A stretch of DNA of 50,126 bases, from sequence record PZ445405.1, one strand, 5' to 3'. The notes beneath the pieces are model-generated. The model saw only the letters and a list, made by a program, of their open reading frames with translations. It made no database searches and was not told the origin of the DNA. Of this stretch, positions 4,068 to 41,428 are shown one piece after another (position 1 is the first letter of the stretch; every line of letters starts with the position of its first letter). The translations under genes and the position numbers were made by a program. Origin of the DNA: a phage.

Positions 4068-5357
4068 ATGAACTTTTTAGATTTAGTCAGAAAGCAATAC
4101 GATAGCGGAAAGGTTAGTCTTTCAGGAGTAAAGGTTAGCACTGACTTCACAACCACTTCATTAATTCAAGCAGCAACGACAATAGCTAACCCAGTCACTC
4201 ACACCCGCAAGGATGAAACTAAATTTAAGTTTACCACTTACGGGCTGGCTGATGTTTCCGGCGGCTCCTATACTGGGCAGTCGCCAAATGGCGTGCAAAT
4301 GAAAATTGAGTTCATGACTGACGCGCTTGTCTTTGAGTTCAAGACTATCGGCTCTATCGGTACGTACTCTGTATTTGTTGATGGAGAGCTAACCAATATT
4401 GATGCAATCTCAACTCCTAACGGTCAAGCCGTTACTTACGTAAGAACCGAAGCCTCAGATGGCGTAATTAAGAGAATGAGACACGTCGAGATTTATGGGG
4501 TGAACACTTCATTCGGCGGGTTGTTTACCGACGCTGCGGATACGGTAACCAGCGAAATCACCATCGATCCAAAACCTTTTATCTACCAGATGGGTGACAG
4601 TTACACGTACGGCACTGGCGCAGGCTACGTAACTCAGGCATACGGCTCATCCCCAGCGATTAACGATTTCTACGTGTTCAGAAATGCGCTAGGCATGGAC
4701 GGCATCGCGGAAGGTATCGGTGGTAGCGGATGGAACAGCACGGGCGGGCAAGTTCCGGCCTCAAGGTTGCAAAACAGACTGCTTAAGATGAATCGCAAGC
4801 CAGATGTTGTTAGTTTCGCTCTCGCATACAATGACGCTGCGGCTATTAACACTGGAACTAACGCAAGCAAACTAGTTACCTCGATGGGTGACGCGCTAAA
4901 GGTTGTCCGAGATGCAATGCCTGGCGTTCCTGTTATTCATGTTAGCTGTGCCACGCCAAAAGGAATCACCACGCAAATTCAGAGAGTCATAGACCTTACT
5001 CATGATTTTTGCGCAAGAAATGACATTCCCGTGATTGGGATTAGTAACTACGTGACTGCGGCGAACAGCATTTCATACACTGGAACGGATAACGTCCACC
5101 CAAACCCTCTGGGGCACGAATTCCGCGGTTTAGCTATGGCAAGGGAGTCATTAATGGCGGCGCTGGAAGGTCGTAGCCTGGTGCCAGAAATCAAACCCAG
5201 CGGTTTCACTGTAACTTACATTGAGCGACTCCGCTTCGCGGTTGATGTTAAGCGTGAGGTTGTTCAAGCTAAAACCGCAGATGAGGCATACTGGATGGTT
5301 AAATCTCGGGAGTACAGCAATCCAGACTTGAGAATCGAAATCATTTCTGTAGCATAA
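4068..5357 (+). CDS. SGNH/GDSL-family hydrolase domain protein (putative esterase) with N-terminal beta-rich domain
   Basis: Catalytic blocks readable in the C-terminal half: GDSYTYG (Ser), GGSGWNS (Gly), AYNDAA (Asn), DNVHPN (Asp-His). Confidence 0.6.
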
Positions 5358-5363
5358 CAACAA

Positions 5364-5386
5364 GCCTCCTTCGGGAGGTTTTTTAT
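5364..5386 (+). terminator. Rho-independent terminator
   Basis: CCTCC-ttcg-GGAGG followed by TTTTTTATT. Confidence 0.65.
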
Positions 5387-5439
5387 TAACCTTAACTCTG
5401 TTAGACTTATTAGGTCTATTAACCAATCAGGAGATTAAG

Positions 5440-6873
5440 ATGGCTAGCGAATTAAGAGCAGTAACCGCTGGGACTGCCCACGCCCTAAAGCAAAAAATCA
5501 TGGAATACATTGCTGATGGTTGGCAGCCTTATGGAAGAATCCTTAACGCTGGAGCGACTAGCGTTGGTATCATCATGGCGAAAGGTACTACAGCAAGCAT
5601 TAATGATGTTGATGTTATTACCGCAGATTCAAGGGCTTCTTTAGTTTCTAAGATTAACTCATCCATCGAAAATGGGTTTGAGATGTTCGGAGAGCAGGAA
5701 GTGAACGCAAGTAGATTTATCGCCTTCATGACTAAGGGTTCTCAAGGTTCATCTGGTGGCGGTGGAGAACCTGGACCAATTGGGCCTAAGGGTGAGAAGG
5801 GTGACAAGGGCGACAAGGGAGATGTTGGTGAGCGCGGACCCGCTGGCCTAGCTGGTGCGGCTGGCGCTACTGGTCCATCTGGCCCTCAAGGTTTAACTGG
5901 CCCCGCCGGCGCTAAAGGTGATACTGGTGAGCAGGGACCAATGGGTCCAACTGGCGCTACTGGACCTAAAGGTGATACTGGCGAAACTGGTCCCGCCGGA
6001 CCGCAGGGCCCAAGAGGATTGCAAGGTGAGCAGGGGGTTCCGGGCGAGGTTGGTCCTGCTGGATTGACATTCCAGGGCGCATGGGATTCTGCTGCGACAT
6101 ATGTGAAGGATGACACTGTAGTTTATGATGGGTCTACTTGGTTTGCTCCAGATGCTGTAGCTGCTGGATTAGTCCCTGGAGTTGCTACTGAGTGGATTCT
6201 TTTAGCTGCGCAAGGCGCAAGGGGCGAGGATGGTCCGCAGGGTCCGGTTGGCCCTCAGGGTTTACAGGGTGCCACTGGCCCAGCGGGTCCTACTGGTGCT
6301 ACTGGTGCTACAGGCCCGCAAGGCCCTAGAGGTATACAAGGTCAAACTGGCCCGGCAGGCCCAGCAGGTCCTCAGGGTGAGGCTGGTCCTCAGGGTATTC
6401 AGGGTCCGCAGGGTGTCGCTGGGCCTCAGGGATTAACTGGTCCTCAGGGTCCAAAAGGTGATAAAGGCGATGCTCCTTACACATTATTTAACTCGCAGAA
6501 CGTTACATCAACATACATTGAAATCCCTATTCCGCAAGTAACCAACACTGTACTTAGGGTTAGGCTTTCAGGTGCCAACTTTGAATATAGCGTTTTAAGC
6601 AAAGGCGGCGCCAATAGATATGTTGACTTTTACACATTCATCCCGTCATTAACTAGCTCAACGGGTAACATCTATACCGGAGGAACTACCTTGACACCAA
6701 CTGGTAGCCTCTTTTTGGGTAACTCCCCCGTGGCTCTTGGATTGAGGGAGTTGACAATAACACTCAAGGAATGGGGCGACAGAACGCTAACTACAATAAA
6801 GGCGATACATCACGGCAGATCAGGTGACACAACAAGACCTTTGCAGATAACTATGTTTAGTAATAAGTATTAA
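5440..6873 (+). CDS. Collagen-like (Gly-X-Y repeat) protein, probable virion fibre
   Basis: Two long uninterrupted G-X-Y tracts ([20 protein letters not shown].. and [22 protein letters not shown]..) flanked by globular N- and C-terminal domains. Confidence 0.8.
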
Positions 6874-9883: not shown

Positions 9884-10540
9884 ATGGCCCATCTCAGCAA
9901 TGGCACTCAGGTCTTCGTAGAAGGCTCTAGGGGAGCTACAATTGACGTAACTGCAATTTCCAACGCAGTTACCCCTGTTTTAACTGTATCTGACGCCTCT
10001 GGCTTGGTTGTTGGTGATTACCTGCTTTTCACCTCTTCTGCTTCCACGCTTCTGGCTGACAAGCAAGTTCGAGTTACCGAAATCTCTGGCACGTCAGTAA
10101 CTGTTGAAGGTATTGATACCTCTAGCACTACAAAGTTCCCAGCCGGTTTAACTGGTGAAGTTGTTAAGATTACTTCTTGGTTCGAAGTTCCGTGCGTTCA
10201 GGATGTATCTACTGATGGCGGCGAACAGCAGTTCGTTAACTTCCAGTGCCTGTCAGATGACCGTGAACAGCAGATTCCGACTTATAAATCTGCGGTAACT
10301 AACACCTTTACCTTTGCTCATGAGTACACTAACCCGGTTTATCCGGTTCTGCGTAACTATGATGAGTCTGGTCAGGTTGTTGCGATTCGTCTGTTCGTAC
10401 CTAGAGCCAGCGAAATGCGTTTGCAGTCCGGCACTATCGCTTTCAACGACACCCCGACCATTGGCGTTAACGAAATCGAAACGGTATCCATCGCAGTATC
10501 CATTCGTGGCCGCCTGTCCTCTGTGGCAGCAGAAGTTTAA
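9884..10540 (+). CDS. Major tail protein (putative)
   Basis: 218-aa Ser/Thr/Val-rich ORF upstream of the chaperone and tape measure genes, followed by a strong terminator. Confidence 0.55.
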   Translation: MAHLSNGTQVFVEGSRGATIDVTAISNAVTPVLTVSDASGLVVGDYLLFTSSASTLLADKQVRVTEISGTSVTVEGIDTSSTTKFPAGLTGEVVKITSWFEVPCVQDVSTDGGEQQFVNFQCLSDDREQQIPTYKSAVTNTFTFAHEYTNPVYPVLRNYDESGQVVAIRLFVPRASEMRLQSGTIAFNDTPTIGVNEIETVSIAVSIRGRLSSVAAEV

Positions 10541-10547
10541 AACACCA

Positions 10548-10569
10548 ACCCTCTTCGGAGGGTTTTTTA
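10548..10569 (+). terminator. Rho-independent terminator
   Basis: ACCCTC-ttcg-GAGGGT followed by TTTTTTATT. Confidence 0.7.
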
Positions 10570-10573
10570 TTGC

Positions 10574-10650
10574 ATAGCACTTTTTGCCAAAGATCTTATT
10601 CAACTTTGCTGTATAGTTACCTCATCGAAACGAAATGAGAGATTAAAGAA
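10574..10650 (+). promoter_or_regulatory. Promoter cassette, T-rich-centre variant (ATAGCACTTTTTGCCAAA, 22 bp, TATAGT 10612-10617, leader CATCGAAACG)
   Basis: Same geometry as the canonical cassette; drives the lipoprotein ORF. Confidence 0.55.
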
Positions 10651-11037
10651 ATGAAAGCAATCATCGCAATTATGGCAACCTTGTTACTCGCTGGCTGTAA
10701 CTCAGATAAGGTAAAGACACTTAACGTTGATCTGGCATCAAACGAATGCAAGAACATCGTATACAACGCGACGGTTAACAATGAATCATTTACTCAGCTT
10801 TCATTCAAACACCCAGAGCTCAAAGATGCCGTTATGTACGTGGCGCACATTGAATGCACGAAATCTGTTAACAATTTTACCCGCGGCGTTGTAGTTGAGC
10901 ACAACACAACATTGGCAAAAGTATCAAAGCCTAGTGACGCTTCAATCGCGATGGTTTATACTAATATCTACAATTTAGAAGGTTTCGCTAAGGAAGTTGG
11001 CGAGAAGCTGGCTTACTCACGCGTTGTTATGAAATAA
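10651..11037 (+). CDS. Lipoprotein (moron inside the tail operon)
   Basis: Signal peptide with lipobox LLAGC (MKAIIAIMATLLLAGCNSD); own promoter cassette and flanking terminator. Confidence 0.6.
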   Translation: MKAIIAIMATLLLAGCNSDKVKTLNVDLASNECKNIVYNATVNNESFTQLSFKHPELKDAVMYVAHIECTKSVNNFTRGVVVEHNTTLAKVSKPSDASIAMVYTNIYNLEGFAKEVGEKLAYSRVVMK

Positions 11038-11377: not shown

Positions 11378-11689
11378 GTGTATCTACAGTACCAGTCAGA
11401 CCCAACCGATGCCGAACTGGAAGCTATTGGGATGCGCCGCTCTGATTACGAAGATGAAGAGCCTGAGGTTTTACACTTCGACGACAACATGATGAAGGCG
11501 TGGGACATTTATTGTTCAATGGCTACACAATGGAGAGTCGGAGCTAACGGAGCTACAGGCTTAGATTACAACGTGCTAAATTTCCTCTTTAGAGTGTATA
11601 ATGTTTCTGAAGAAGAATTGGTGCTCAGCGATTTACGCATCCTTGAAGCTAAGGCTCTAGAGATGATGGACAACCTGAGAAAAAAATAA
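11378..11689 (+). CDS. Tail assembly chaperone frameshift extension (gpT-like segment, expressed as G-T fusion)
   Basis: -1 frame ORF contiguous with the G gene; conserved G/GT arrangement upstream of tape measure. Confidence 0.6.
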   Translation: MYLQYQSDPTDAELEAIGMRRSDYEDEEPEVLHFDDNMMKAWDIYCSMATQWRVGANGATGLDYNVLNFLFRVYNVSEEELVLSDLRILEAKALEMMDNLRKK

Positions 11690-11712
11690 CCCGCTTCGGC
11701 GGGTTTTCTATT
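11688..11712 (+). terminator. Weak terminator / attenuator hairpin
   Basis: ACCCGC-ttcg-GCGGGT followed by TTTCTATT. Confidence 0.4.
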
Positions 11713-15738: not shown

Positions 15739-16056
15739 ATGAAAGCTAAATTTATTGCAAAATCGGAATGGTACACTGGTGAGTACGAATTTACCACTGG
15801 AGAGGATTACGAACTTAGTCACCAAGGCGGCAACTTCTATTCAACAATAGACAATAACGGTCTTTTGGCTTACTTTGAAAATGGTCGATACTATGAATTT
15901 GAGATCCTCAAAAATGAATCAAAAGAGAAGGAGATGACTTACAGAATGAATGGGGATGTGGTTACTGAATCATTCTTTTATGACAGGCTAATGGAGGCTG
16001 AGGCACTTAAGTCCAGAGGGGTTTCTGTATTTATAGATTTTGAGGTTAGTTTTTAA
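15739..16056 (+). CDS. Hypothetical small acidic Tyr/Gly-rich protein (cassette-driven moron)
   Basis: Motif TGEYEFTTGEDYEL similar to ORFs at 612 and 34351. Confidence 0.45.
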   Translation: MKAKFIAKSEWYTGEYEFTTGEDYELSHQGGNFYSTIDNNGLLAYFENGRYYEFEILKNESKEKEMTYRMNGDVVTESFFYDRLMEAEALKSRGVSVFIDFEVSF

Positions 16057-20980: not shown

Positions 20981-21010
20981 AACAAAAGCCCCGAAAGGGG
21001 CTTTATCTTT
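20977..21010. terminator. Bidirectional terminator between convergent J (+) and the 311-aa gene (-)
   Basis: AGCCCC-gaaa-GGGGCT flanked by an A-run upstream and T-rich sequence downstream. Confidence 0.6.
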
Positions 21011-21944
21011 AATACATATCAGGAAGGTAAGGAAGAGGAATGCCAAGTGTAACGTCTGGCCTATTTCCAATTTCATATCTAACTATCCTTGTGCCCGTGC
21101 CGCTCCTTACATTACCACCAGACATTACCACACCTTTGTTTCTTAGCTCCTTGTATGCAGGTATTGCTCTTGTGTTAAACCCACACCTAAGTATTGGAAA
21201 GTATGAGTTTCCTATACTCTGGTTTGAGCTCGTCAAGGTCCTGAACCCAGAAACAACAAGAGGCCTTGTTAATGTTGAAAAAGTACACTGATTGTTAGAG
21301 TTGAATATGTTTATGCCAGGCCCTGGGGTTGGAGCAACCTGCTGAAATATTATTAGATCAAGAGTTACGCTACCAGGGGTATCTCCAGTATCTTCTGTAT
21401 TTATATTCGTGCAATATAGAGTTCTGTCACCATCAAACTCAACTGAGACACCTGAGTTATTCCACTTCCCAAAAGGTATTCCAGCTATTGGCATTGTATA
21501 GCTGTTTGTGAATGATACGGTTGCTGAAAATTTGCAAGTAAGAAGCCTATCCCTTGTTGTTATAGAGGCGAAATCAGTACTATCAGCAACGTATATACCT
21601 TGCCCAGTTGACGCTCTCAATACTTCCACTACAGTTCCAGAGAACTGCGTAATACGGTCATTATAAGCATTCTCCCCACCAATAGTTATCGTCCCCTGAG
21701 TATTGGTTGCTGAAAATCCATTTATATAATAAATCTCAACCCCCCTATCAAGTTCAAAGCTATAGGCACCATTTCTTGGTAGTAAGAATTTTGATGAGCC
21801 ATCGCTACCAGTTATTGGGAATGTCTTTGTAAATCCTCCGCTAGAAACGTTGAAGTTACCAGCAAAAGACAACCCCCTCATCCCTGAGGTTATCATCATT
21901 GGGTTTCTACCATCATTCAGATCTATATATATACCTTGGGCCAT
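21009..21944 (-). CDS. Hypothetical 311-aa Gly/Ser/Thr/Asn-rich protein; candidate receptor-binding or tail accessory protein
   Basis: ATG overlaps the TAA of the upstream lipoprotein gene (TAATG); SD AAGGAG; location just downstream of J. Confidence 0.5.
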   Translation of the reverse strand: MAQGIYIDLNDGRNPMMITSGMRGLSFAGNFNVSSGGFTKTFPITGSDGSSKFLLPRNGAYSFELDRGVEIYYINGFSATNTQGTITIGGENAYNDRITQFSGTVVEVLRASTGQGIYVADSTDFASITTRDRLLTCKFSATVSFTNSYTMPIAGIPFGKWNNSGVSVEFDGDRTLYCTNINTEDTGDTPGSVTLDLIIFQQVAPTPGPGINIFNSNNQCTFSTLTRPLVVSGFRTLTSSNQSIGNSYFPILRCGFNTRAIPAYKELRNKGVVMSGGNVRSGTGTRIVRYEIGNRPDVTLGIPLPYLPDMY

Positions 21945-22174
21945 TAATTCCACTCCTTAGAGCCATGATCACGAACAGATCCGCTAGAGCCTTTAATTCC
22001 ATCGTAACGAACATCAACCTCGCCAGCCGGAACAACTACACCACCCTTCCATTTAGCTACGCATACGCCGTTAGCTTGAGTTGCACACCAACCATCCGGG
22101 CGAGGACCCGATGAACAACCTACTGTCATGATTACTACTGCGGCGATGATTGCTGATTTGATTAAGTTAGTCAT
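21944..22174 (-). CDS. Small lipoprotein (76 aa); candidate superinfection-exclusion lipoprotein (Llp/Cor-like role)
   Basis: Signal peptide ending in the lipobox-compatible MTVGC; cassette-driven; translationally coupled to the 311-aa ORF. Confidence 0.5.
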
Positions 22175-22258
22175 TTTGTATTCCTTAGTAAGTTCGTTTC
22201 GTTTCGATGGAGTAATAGTATCGCATCCTTGCGATCAGTGTTTAGCAATTCGTGCTAT
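22175..22258 (-). promoter_or_regulatory. Canonical promoter cassette on the minus strand (box at 22241-22258)
   Basis: Reverse complement reads ATAGCACGAATTGCTAAA, 22 bp, TACTAT, CATCGAAACGAAACG; the box also encodes the C-terminus (NSTNC) and stop of the upstream gene. Confidence 0.55.
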
Positions 22259-38125: not shown

Positions 38126-38611
38126 ATGAAGCAGAAGCTGGTAGTTGGTGCCGCGACCGCTGCAGCGATATACATCGCAGCGCCTCTTATTGAGCTTGTG
38201 GAGGGTGTCGAATACAATCCATACATGGATATTGCTGGAATCCCTACAGTCTGTTCTGGCATTACTGGTCCTGACGTTGTTTGGGGTAAAAAATACAGCA
38301 AGAGGGAATGCCGAAACCTGCTTGAGAAACACATTCAGATTCATGGAAAGCATGTTCATGATGCAGTTACCTACCCAATTTCACCGCAGACAAGGGCAGC
38401 GTTAATCAGCTTTAGCTACAACGTTGGTGGTCATGCCATGAAGAACTCAACGGCAATTCGCCTTATCAACCAGGGTAAGATTGAGCAGGGTTGTAAGGCT
38501 CTCGGGATGTGGACGAAGGCCACCGTTAATGGCAAGAAGGTTGTCGTTAAGGGGTTAGTGAATCGCAGGAATGAGGAGATTAAGTTATGCTTAAGTGGAT
38601 TGCAGCGTTAG
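38126..38611 (+). CDS. Endolysin (phage lysozyme / GH24-like)
   Basis: N-terminal anchor-like helix and lysozyme-type motifs (ELVEGVEYNPYMD, GIPTVCSGIT); start overlaps the holin stop. Confidence 0.7.
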   Translation: MKQKLVVGAATAAAIYIAAPLIELVEGVEYNPYMDIAGIPTVCSGITGPDVVWGKKYSKRECRNLLEKHIQIHGKHVHDAVTYPISPQTRAALISFSYNVGGHAMKNSTAIRLINQGKIEQGCKALGMWTKATVNGKKVVVKGLVNRRNEEIKLCLSGLQR

Positions 38612-38985
38612 TGATGTGCGCGGCTTTATCTGGATGTTCAGCAACAGATGCACTGACCGGATTGATTGGCAGTAAGCCAGAGATTAGTGCACAGGCTGGC
38701 GCCGAGAACAACAAGGTTGGGGTTGGGTTAACAAATAAGGTTGATTCCAGTAACTCCAGTGAAGCCACGGTTAAAGACTCTAAGGTTGGGTCACTAGATA
38801 GCTCGAGCGGTAAAAAGACTGCCGACAACTCGATTAGGGCCTCTACAATCACCGCGGAAAGGATTGAGATTACCAATAATGACTCATTCAGCATTTATGA
38901 AATACTGGCATTGATTGGATTTCCTCTGCTCATTATTTTTAATGGCTGCTATGTGCTTTACAGGGCAAACAAAAAAGCCTCCTAA
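38587..38985 (+). CDS. Unimolecular spanin (lipoprotein signal plus C-terminal TMD)
   Basis: Lipobox LSGC at the N-terminus (MLKWIAALVMCAALSGCSA) and C-terminal hydrophobic helix (ILALIGFPLLIIFNGCYVLY); overlaps the endolysin 3' end. Confidence 0.6.
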   Translation: MLKWIAALVMCAALSGCSATDALTGLIGSKPEISAQAGAENNKVGVGLTNKVDSSNSSEATVKDSKVGSLDSSSGKKTADNSIRASTITAERIEITNNDSFSIYEILALIGFPLLIIFNGCYVLYRANKKAS

Positions 38986-41347: not shown

Positions 41348-41428
41348 TTTATTTACCTTTCGTTATTTCGTTTCGATGAGATGAATATACAGGAAAAGCC
41401 CCCGAAGGGCTTTATCAATTAGTGCTAT
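41348..41428 (-). promoter_or_regulatory. Promoter cassette on the minus strand (box rc of 41411-41428, terminator-like hairpin in spacer, TATATT, leader CATCGAAACGAAA)
   Basis: Box ATAGCACTAATTGATAAA; spacer 23 bp contains GCCC-ttcg-GGGGC; the box encodes the C-terminal NSTN-stop of the upstream small ORF. Confidence 0.5.

Follow-up and report, generated by a model that had tools for sequence, protein, structure and literature searches.

What is a lipoprotein gene doing in the middle of the tail operon of a phage? The question arises at positions 10574 to 11037 of PZ445405.1, a stretch of 50,126 nucleotides (nt) that we analysed at its full length (the window). The window is the genome of a T1-like siphophage of the Rtp group (Drexlerviridae, Braunvirinae), a new Rtp-like coliphage whose nearest relatives in GenBank are RobRod40, with 88% identity across 75% of the first 25 kb, and Rtp. 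The original prediction, made from the letters alone, had described a 128-amino-acid (aa) lipoprotein encoded by a typical moron with its own promoter and cassette, expressed independently of the tail genes and possibly serving as an exclusion or host-modulating factor. This reading is partly supported: it was reasonable, but overstated with regard to the cassette. Judged from homologues and synteny, the open reading frame (ORF) at 10651-11037 is a genuine, selected gene for a predicted exported lipoprotein, and it fills an exchangeable slot, specific to the lineage, that lies between the gene for the major tail protein (MTP) and those for the tail assembly chaperones (TAC and TAC'). It is probably an ordinary phage add-on that acts on the cell envelope. 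The locus comprises, in order:

9884..10540: major tail (tube) protein gene; PF08813 Phage_tail_3, 7.5e-68
10547..10570, plus strand: intrinsic terminator after the major tail protein gene; hairpin AACCCTCTTCGGAGGGTT with a 7-bp stem, a TTCG loop and a T6 run
10574..10591, plus strand: T-type copy of the Drexlerviridae direct repeat, ATAGCACTTTTTGCCAAA; imperfect inverted repeat TAGCA-N5-TGCCA
10610..10617, plus strand: -10-like element, TG + TATAGT, 20 nt 3' of the repeat element
10618..10650, plus strand: stereotyped leader (tacctCATCGAAACGAaatGAGAG...); Shine-Dalgarno-like GAGAG at 10637-10641, 9 nt before the ATG
10651..11037, plus strand: rtp34-family lipoprotein gene; ATG start, 128 aa
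11055..11369 and 11378..11689, plus strand: tail assembly chaperone pair; PF08748 Phage_TAC_4 and PF08809 DUF1799
11688..11709, plus strand: next intrinsic terminator, -11.8 kcal/mol; likely end of the lipoprotein-TAC-TAC' transcription unit

The Pfam matches and the hairpin scan agree with the predicted placement of the ORF between the major tail gene and the tail chaperones, with a terminator 5' of it. This terminator was found by a pattern scan, folds with -10.6 kcal/mol (RNAfold) and is identical in sequence across 13 related phages. The start of the predicted element, 10574, is the first base of the repeat element.

The N-terminus of the protein reads MKAIIAIMATLLLAG followed by CNSDK, and thus has what defines a bacterial lipoprotein, a signal peptide that ends in a lipobox ([LVI][ASTVI][GAS]C). 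The lipobox (L13-A14-G15-C16) is canonical and is preceded by a short basic, lysine-containing n-region and a hydrophobic h-region. The signal peptide corresponds to codons 1-15 (10651-10695), LAGC to 10687-10698, and the predicted lipidated Cys16 to 10696-10698. The mature part has 113 aa, 12.6 kDa and a pI of 7.9, and contains the conserved Cys33 and Cys69. The residue at +2 is Asn, and the Asp that signals Lol avoidance is absent; by the established +2 rule, sorting to the outer membrane would be expected. A lipobox scan of all ORFs in the window matched only this ORF and one at 38587, with a pattern that missed the T-V-G-C box of a third lipoprotein at 21944..22174 (minus strand). The Pfam match to LPAM_1 is weak (14.3 bits, under its 20-bit cut-off), and we discarded it as noise together with Imm2, TrbK, LpoB, phrog_902 and phrog_6360, all of which are signal-peptide-level or sub-threshold matches (Pfam, PHROGs, NCBIfam, PADLOC).

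Homologues support the predicted lipoprotein, as the lipobox is kept in 13 of 14 close and in all five distant ones. The orthologues are rtp34 of Escherichia phage Rtp (CAJ42238.1, 87% identity) and MM01_00027 of phage MM01 (89%), both of which encode 128 aa with the same lipobox, sit in the same slot behind the same leader, and show no substantive difference from the window gene. Both are annotated as "hypothetical protein" and carry the UniRef name "Lipoprotein"; the sole paper in the searchable literature that matches the string "rtp34" does not concern phages. Among 5.8 billion proteins searched there were 14 relatives, and an exhaustive profile search of 1.84 billion cluster representatives recovered five clusters only for the whole rtp34 family. 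The distant clusters are all lipoproteins and have two cysteines in common within NxCxN and ExC motifs, which correspond to Cys33 and Cys69 here. The family is uncharacterised, annotated as hypothetical since the Rtp genome was deposited, yet of a familiar kind, the accessory envelope proteins of phages.

In pairwise Nei-Gojobori comparisons of six phages, the ratio of non-synonymous to synonymous substitution rates (dN/dS) is 0.155 for the lipoprotein gene, 0.053 for the tube gene and 0.039 for the chaperone gene. The lipoprotein gene is under clear purifying selection, about three times less constrained than its structural neighbours, and diversifying selection on it was not detected by dN/dS in these six phages. 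Because it has 14 close relatives, distant clusters, a low dN/dS and a near-universal lipobox cysteine, the ORF is more than a chance reading frame.

The slot in which the gene resides is variable. We gathered 42 Drexlerviridae loci via the chaperone protein and measured the distance from the stop codon of the tube gene to the start of the chaperone gene. The slot is empty in 34 of them (a gap of 72-152 nt and no gene), seven, all Braunvirinae, hold an 82-aa protein that begins at the same start codon position, and only Rtp itself holds the 128-aa lipoprotein. The gene is therefore absent or replaced in 41 of 42 loci, and the check that had been suggested for it, presence or absence at the same locus, identifies it as accessory. 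The alternative cargo (L002:2268-2516; L004-L010; bas02_0014 of JeanPiccard, L057:968-1216) fills the slot in most Braunvirinae, belongs to phrog_22925 and has an N-terminal hydrophobic segment and two conserved cysteines. Both alleles are predicted exported or membrane proteins; homology between them was considered and rejected (hhalign probability 0.2%).

Alignment of the window with Rtp, MM01 and EC3a delimits the exchange. The four phages are nearly identical from the terminator through the leader to the fifth base of the ORF, then diverge over the whole cargo, and identity resumes about 20 nt before the chaperone ATG. The swap boundaries are the ATG and the ribosome-binding site of the chaperone gene, and on this alignment one sharply bounded cassette has taken the place of another. 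The slot in the tail operon is kept by two closer relatives, P0014 (55-56% identity) and P0015 (40%). Distant members (29-32% identity), found in BEK12A (Tempevirinae) and in metagenomic phages, follow helicase and VRR_NUC genes, and the BEK12A homologue lies upstream of Dam. The homologues at the helicase/VRR_NUC position also stand behind a T-type repeat module, so that the gene does travel as a module-led cassette there; one of them (L021) has its own terminator. One metagenomic phage has its homologue, with its own terminator, right beside the lysis cassette in convergent orientation.

How is the gene expressed? The repeat motif that precedes it has 21 matches in the window against 2.65 expected. 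Twenty oriented copies stand upstream of ORFs, and all but one of these have a TAnnnT hexamer 20-21 nt downstream, so that a module takes the form of the repeat ATAGCACnnnTTGnTAAA, then N20 and the -10 box. The distance from repeat to start codon is 66-87 nt in 15 of the 20 copies and up to 133 nt in the others. The leader CATCGAAACGAgAGGAG often follows the -10 hexamer, and the leader motif CATCGAAACGA at the lipoprotein gene is common to many other modules of the window. At the tail slot, the leader is kept up to the ATG even where a phage carries the other cargo gene. Over 13 phages, conservation amounts to 96% in the repeat, 63% in the spacer, 94% in the -10 hexamer and 80% in the leader, and the TG is invariant. 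This conservation footprint and the fixed -10 box argue for a promoter module, and suggest promoters driven by an activator or by the -10 box. A generic scan for the sigma-70 consensus between the terminator and the ATG found no promoter, and it is silent at TATAGT because there is no -35 element at 16-18 nt; a canonical sigma-70 promoter was likewise rejected, as TTGCCA lies 22 nt from TATAGT.

The same repeat family is known from phage TLS, where 21 copies of the consensus aaATAGCACnnnTTGnTAAAA lie about 76 nt upstream of start codons in the subtypes A, T and G; the repeat was also noted in T1 and Rtp, and its function was left open between a stoperator, an enhancer site and an UP element (PMC11447400). 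The window copy fits this consensus and distance and is of subtype T. For these direct repeat ("DR") elements, the fixed -10 box and the 13-phage footprint described here point to a predicted promoter module.

Across the window, the 20 modules lie at 539+, 10576+, 15667+, 22256-, 23002-, 24274-, 25930+, 29774+, 31775+, 34271+, 35049+, 36962+, 37520+, 41426-, 42690-, 44292+, 44569+, 45443+, 45865+ and 46432+. Their stereotyped form is (aaAT)AGCACnnnTTGyTAAA, 20-21 nt, TAnnnT, leader and ATG, with a -35-like TTGCTA at 22 nt from the -10 box, a distance that is non-canonical for sigma-70. The repeats fall into the subtypes GAA, TTT and TAA, which might mark temporal classes. The modules at 41426(-) and 45443(+) have a GC-rich, terminator-like hairpin with a T-run inside the 20-nt spacer between repeat and -10 box, so that stop and restart signals are fused in one compact unit. 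The window modules, these two among them, resemble the promoter-stem-loop cassettes that Arbiol et al. reportedly described for T4-type phages in 2010. For Rtp itself, the genome paper of 2006 reportedly describes inverted repeats for a regulator, Rtp52.

Every locus that lacks a slot gene likewise has a terminator and, directly behind it, a -10 or extended -10 element ahead of the chaperone gene. A restart signal is thus a feature of the junction, and the lipoprotein gene alone did not introduce it. Since only 17 nt separate the lipoprotein stop codon from the chaperone ATG, and the pattern scan found neither a terminator nor a hairpin within them, the gene is probably co-transcribed with the chaperones. 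It would most simply be the first cistron of a restart transcript that covers the lipoprotein and both chaperones. The claim of an own promoter holds insofar as the gene stands behind a conserved, promoter-like repeat module that includes a -10 box, but gene-less relatives have a junction signal too and the sigma-70 scan was negative. The claim of a cassette with independent expression is right about the leading module, whereas the gene lacks a terminator of its own and would head the chaperone unit.

Tempevirinae-type loci have the same T-type repeat at the MTP-TAC junction, but inverted. In L039-L052 and in BEK12A (L024:10978-11082), the inverted repeat TTTTAACAAAAAGTGCTAT lies between the extended -10 element and the chaperone ribosome-binding site, and on its opposite strand a -10-like TAGAGT at the usual distance faces the bidirectional terminator. 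Conceivable roles of this inverted repeat are those of an operator, a roadblock or an antisense promoter.

Whether the gene is a typical moron can be judged against the published definition of added DNA with deviating GC content and its own promoter and terminator (PMC3594210). It is extra DNA relative to its syntenic relatives, 34 of 42 of which have only the short gap. The next terminator lies as far downstream as 11688, behind the chaperones, and the GC content of 41.3%, compared with 44.8% for the genome, falls on the 16th percentile of equal-sized windows. GC at third codon positions is 46.5%, like that of the neighbours, and base composition was discarded as a signal of horizontal transfer because it is not distinctive. 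The gene is thus only partly a classical moron: the added DNA stands, the own terminator and the deviating GC do not.

In an AlphaFold2 model (alignment of 14 sequences; predicted local distance difference test score, pLDDT, 83.9; predicted template modelling score, pTM, 0.75), the signal peptide is disordered, and five helices with two short strands make up the compact domain behind it, in which Cys33 and Cys69 sit on neighbouring helices. A Foldseek search of this model against the PDB returned no informative relative (best E 1.3), a BFVD search retrieved the MM01 orthologue only, and a sequence profile search of the PDB gave nothing below E 0.09. No Pfam family covers the 128-aa protein, Pfam and NCBIfam gave neither an enzymatic motif nor a family match for it, and PADLOC revealed no similarity to known defence or anti-defence families. 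It shows neither sequence nor fold similarity to the injection-blocking superinfection exclusion (Sie) proteins HK97 gp15/YebO and TP-J34 Ltp. In these searches, homology and fold speak neither for nor against an exclusion or host-modulating function.

We favour the following course of events. Transcription would restart at the repeat module and yield one mRNA for the lipoprotein and both chaperone genes. The pre-protein would be exported by Sec, lipidated at Cys16 and cleaved by signal peptidase II, and Lol would carry it, with Asn at +2, to the inner leaflet of the outer membrane. There, Cys33 and Cys69 would form a periplasmic disulfide within the compact helical domain, and the protein would act as a periplasm-side superinfection-exclusion factor that hinders the post-adsorption genome delivery of incoming siphophages. 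The terminal receptor of the phage itself would be masked by a separate, Rtp45-type lipoprotein and not by this one. For a periplasm-facing, non-enzymatic helical protein of a virulent phage, encoded in an exchangeable slot whose other cargo is also an exported or membrane protein, a factor of the exclusion or immunity type that acts on a step shared by many phages fits best; HK97 gp15 and TP-J34 Ltp are its closest precedents. We give an exclusion function overall a probability of about 0.4; within it, interference after adsorption is possible but doubtful. A bolder version, which we put forward only tentatively and consider rather unlikely, makes the rtp34 family a new class of periplasmic exclusion or immunity lipoproteins with an unseen helical fold and receptor-independent action, and the MTP-TAC slot of Braunvirinae a hotspot of immunity genes. 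The target would then be a conserved step of siphophage genome delivery or a conserved envelope machine, and exported "immunity" genes would replace one another through recombination between the stereotyped leader of the repeat module and the start of the chaperone gene.

Two homologues weaken the case for a strict requirement for an outer-membrane anchor. In P0014 (L018:1848-2243), which occupies the same slot beside an enlarged tube protein of 315 aa, His replaces the lipidated Cys, and P0017 has Asp at +2, a signal for retention in the inner membrane. The anchor type thus varies within the rtp34 family.

The window also encodes two other lipoproteins, one of them beside a receptor-binding protein gene:

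21944..22174, minus strand: 76-aa lipoprotein of the Rtp45 type; lipobox TVGC, PF24052 Phage_lipoprotein, 1.2e-36
21009..21953, minus strand: receptor-binding protein (RBP); DUF6453, Rtp44-type, predicted LptD-specific
38587..38985, plus strand: 132-aa ORF with lipobox LSGC; phrog_1804, Rz-like spanin

In the product of 38587..38985, the lysis cassette presumably has its unimolecular spanin of the T1 type. The label of a "second lipoprotein" is therefore apt, the 128-aa protein being the second of two non-lysis lipoproteins next to the PF24052 protein. The gene of the latter lies directly upstream of the DUF6453 RBP gene, with a G-type repeat module at 22256(-). For the Rtp45/Rtp44 pair, the mechanism of exclusion on LptDE has been solved, and Rtp45 and Llp are exclusion lipoproteins (PMC12685063).

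The 128-aa protein might itself be a receptor-masking lipoprotein of the Llp/Cor/Rtp45 kind. Bound to an outer-membrane protein on its periplasmic face, it would allosterically keep phages from binding, either at a receptor that competitors use (FhuA or BtuB, for instance) or, as a second layer, on LptD. Its predicted sorting to the outer membrane would suit this role, and the mechanism is established for lipoproteins of the same phage group (PMC12685063; see also PMC9586334). Yet PF24052, which the 76-aa lipoprotein of the window matches so clearly, has no match in the 128-aa protein, whose mature part of 12.6 kDa compares with about 6 kDa for Rtp45; and some homologues have lost the lipid anchor or the outer-membrane sorting, as described above. 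The RBP gene is about 10 kb away from the lipoprotein gene, and members of the family turn up in phages whose RBP loci are unrelated; other LptD phages lack the family. For example, BEK12A combines a family member with an unrelated RBP locus that has its own lipoprotein, and JeanPiccard, which is LptD-dependent (PMC8594841), carries the 82-aa allele in place of the 128-aa lipoprotein. On these two cases we rejected a link between the gene and the LptD-type RBP, and we consider receptor masking improbable.

A role that benefits the producer phage without exclusion would be that of an envelope or lysis accessory, which might affect the integrity of peptidoglycan and outer membrane, the timing of lysis, the release of progeny, or the protection of the infected cell from periplasm-acting toxins. 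A predicted periplasmic lipoprotein would be well placed for this, co-transcription with late tail genes would mean late timing, and in the metagenomic phage mentioned above a homologue adjoins the lysis genes. This linkage is, however, inconsistent, given the tail operon here and the position upstream of Dam in BEK12A, a holin region and the spanin-type lipoprotein of phrog_1804 are already present in the window, and an enzymatic motif or family match is lacking in the searches given above. We regard such a role as unlikely.

Counter-defence genes are frequent among the accessory genes of variable phage slots, and the protein could accordingly be a counter-defence or host-takeover factor directed against a host function associated with the envelope, for example a periplasmic protease or an envelope-linked sensor of abortive infection or stress. 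The narrow distribution of the family and its roughly threefold faster non-synonymous evolution relative to the neighbouring genes would be in keeping with this, but the absence of similarity to known defence and anti-defence families and the overall purifying selection, with no sign of an arms race, leave this purely speculative proposal a slim chance.

A tail assembly or virion component, as the position in the tail operon and the probable co-transcription with the chaperones might suggest, is very unlikely, in agreement with the original prediction, since the gene is missing from 34 and replaced in seven of the 42 syntenic loci, has no tail-family match in Pfam or PHROGs and has homologues outside the tail operon elsewhere, and since predicted Sec export and lipidation would remove the protein from the cytoplasm, where tails assemble.

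Other parts of the structural block also vary. The head module has a variable slot between the cement/decoration gene and the major capsid gene, which holds two inserted genes on the plus strand: 4068..5357 encodes a protein of 429 aa with a GDSL/SGNH hydrolase domain (phrog_9703, "head decoration") and 5440..6873 a collagen-repeat, fibre-like protein of 477 aa (phrog_5073). This insert (4068..6873) is also found in the relative L026, absent from L025 and different in L028. Inside the tail operon, a 105-aa ORF of low GC content (37%) at 15739..16056 (plus strand) separates the L-like from the K-like minor tail gene and has a G-type repeat module of its own. Its product matches phrog_14592, "virion structural protein", so module-led inserts in the structural block are not all necessarily non-structural. 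HNH endonuclease genes interrupt the tail operon of close relatives at varying points (L025:13904-14392, L025:16906-17385 and, on the minus strand, L028:11040-11525), which is further evidence of tail-operon plasticity.

Virulent T1- and Rtp-like phages are candidates for therapy as well as notorious laboratory contaminants, and phage genes that alter the envelope decide who can co-infect and hence how phage cocktails behave. As a candidate for a second exclusion or envelope factor, the lipoprotein is small and testable and has no known relatives outside its family, and two unrelated alleles at one slot provide a natural comparison. If it has no phenotype, its gene is one more orphan accessory gene. 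A repeat of the T1 family that behaves like a promoter module with a fixed -10 box makes a long-open annotation problem directly testable.

Among known systems, Llp of T5, Cor of T1 and phi80, and Rtp45 are phage lipoproteins sorted to the outer membrane of E. coli, as the 128-aa protein is predicted to be, and the Rtp45-type gene of the window also has a repeat module upstream. The 128-aa protein differs from them in that it has no sequence match to them, a mature part about twice as large and a predicted helical fold, and in that its gene is neither adjacent to the RBP gene nor correlated with receptor type. The gp15 moron of HK97 sits within the tail operon, flanked by chaperone and tape-measure genes; it prevents genome entry (PMC3594210). 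Like the window gene, it is an extra gene near the chaperones of a siphophage tail operon and encodes a small, non-virion envelope protein (PMC3594210). However, gp15 is a YebO-like inner-membrane protein that is expressed from the prophage and has its own promoter and terminator, whereas the window gene belongs to a virulent phage, lies upstream of the chaperones without a terminator of its own, and encodes a lipoprotein with no similarity to gp15. Ltp of the Streptococcus thermophilus phage TP-J34 is a phage lipoprotein that excludes superinfecting siphophages after adsorption, as the 128-aa lipoprotein is proposed to do here; the reported target of Ltp is the tape measure protein (reference in PMC3952083).
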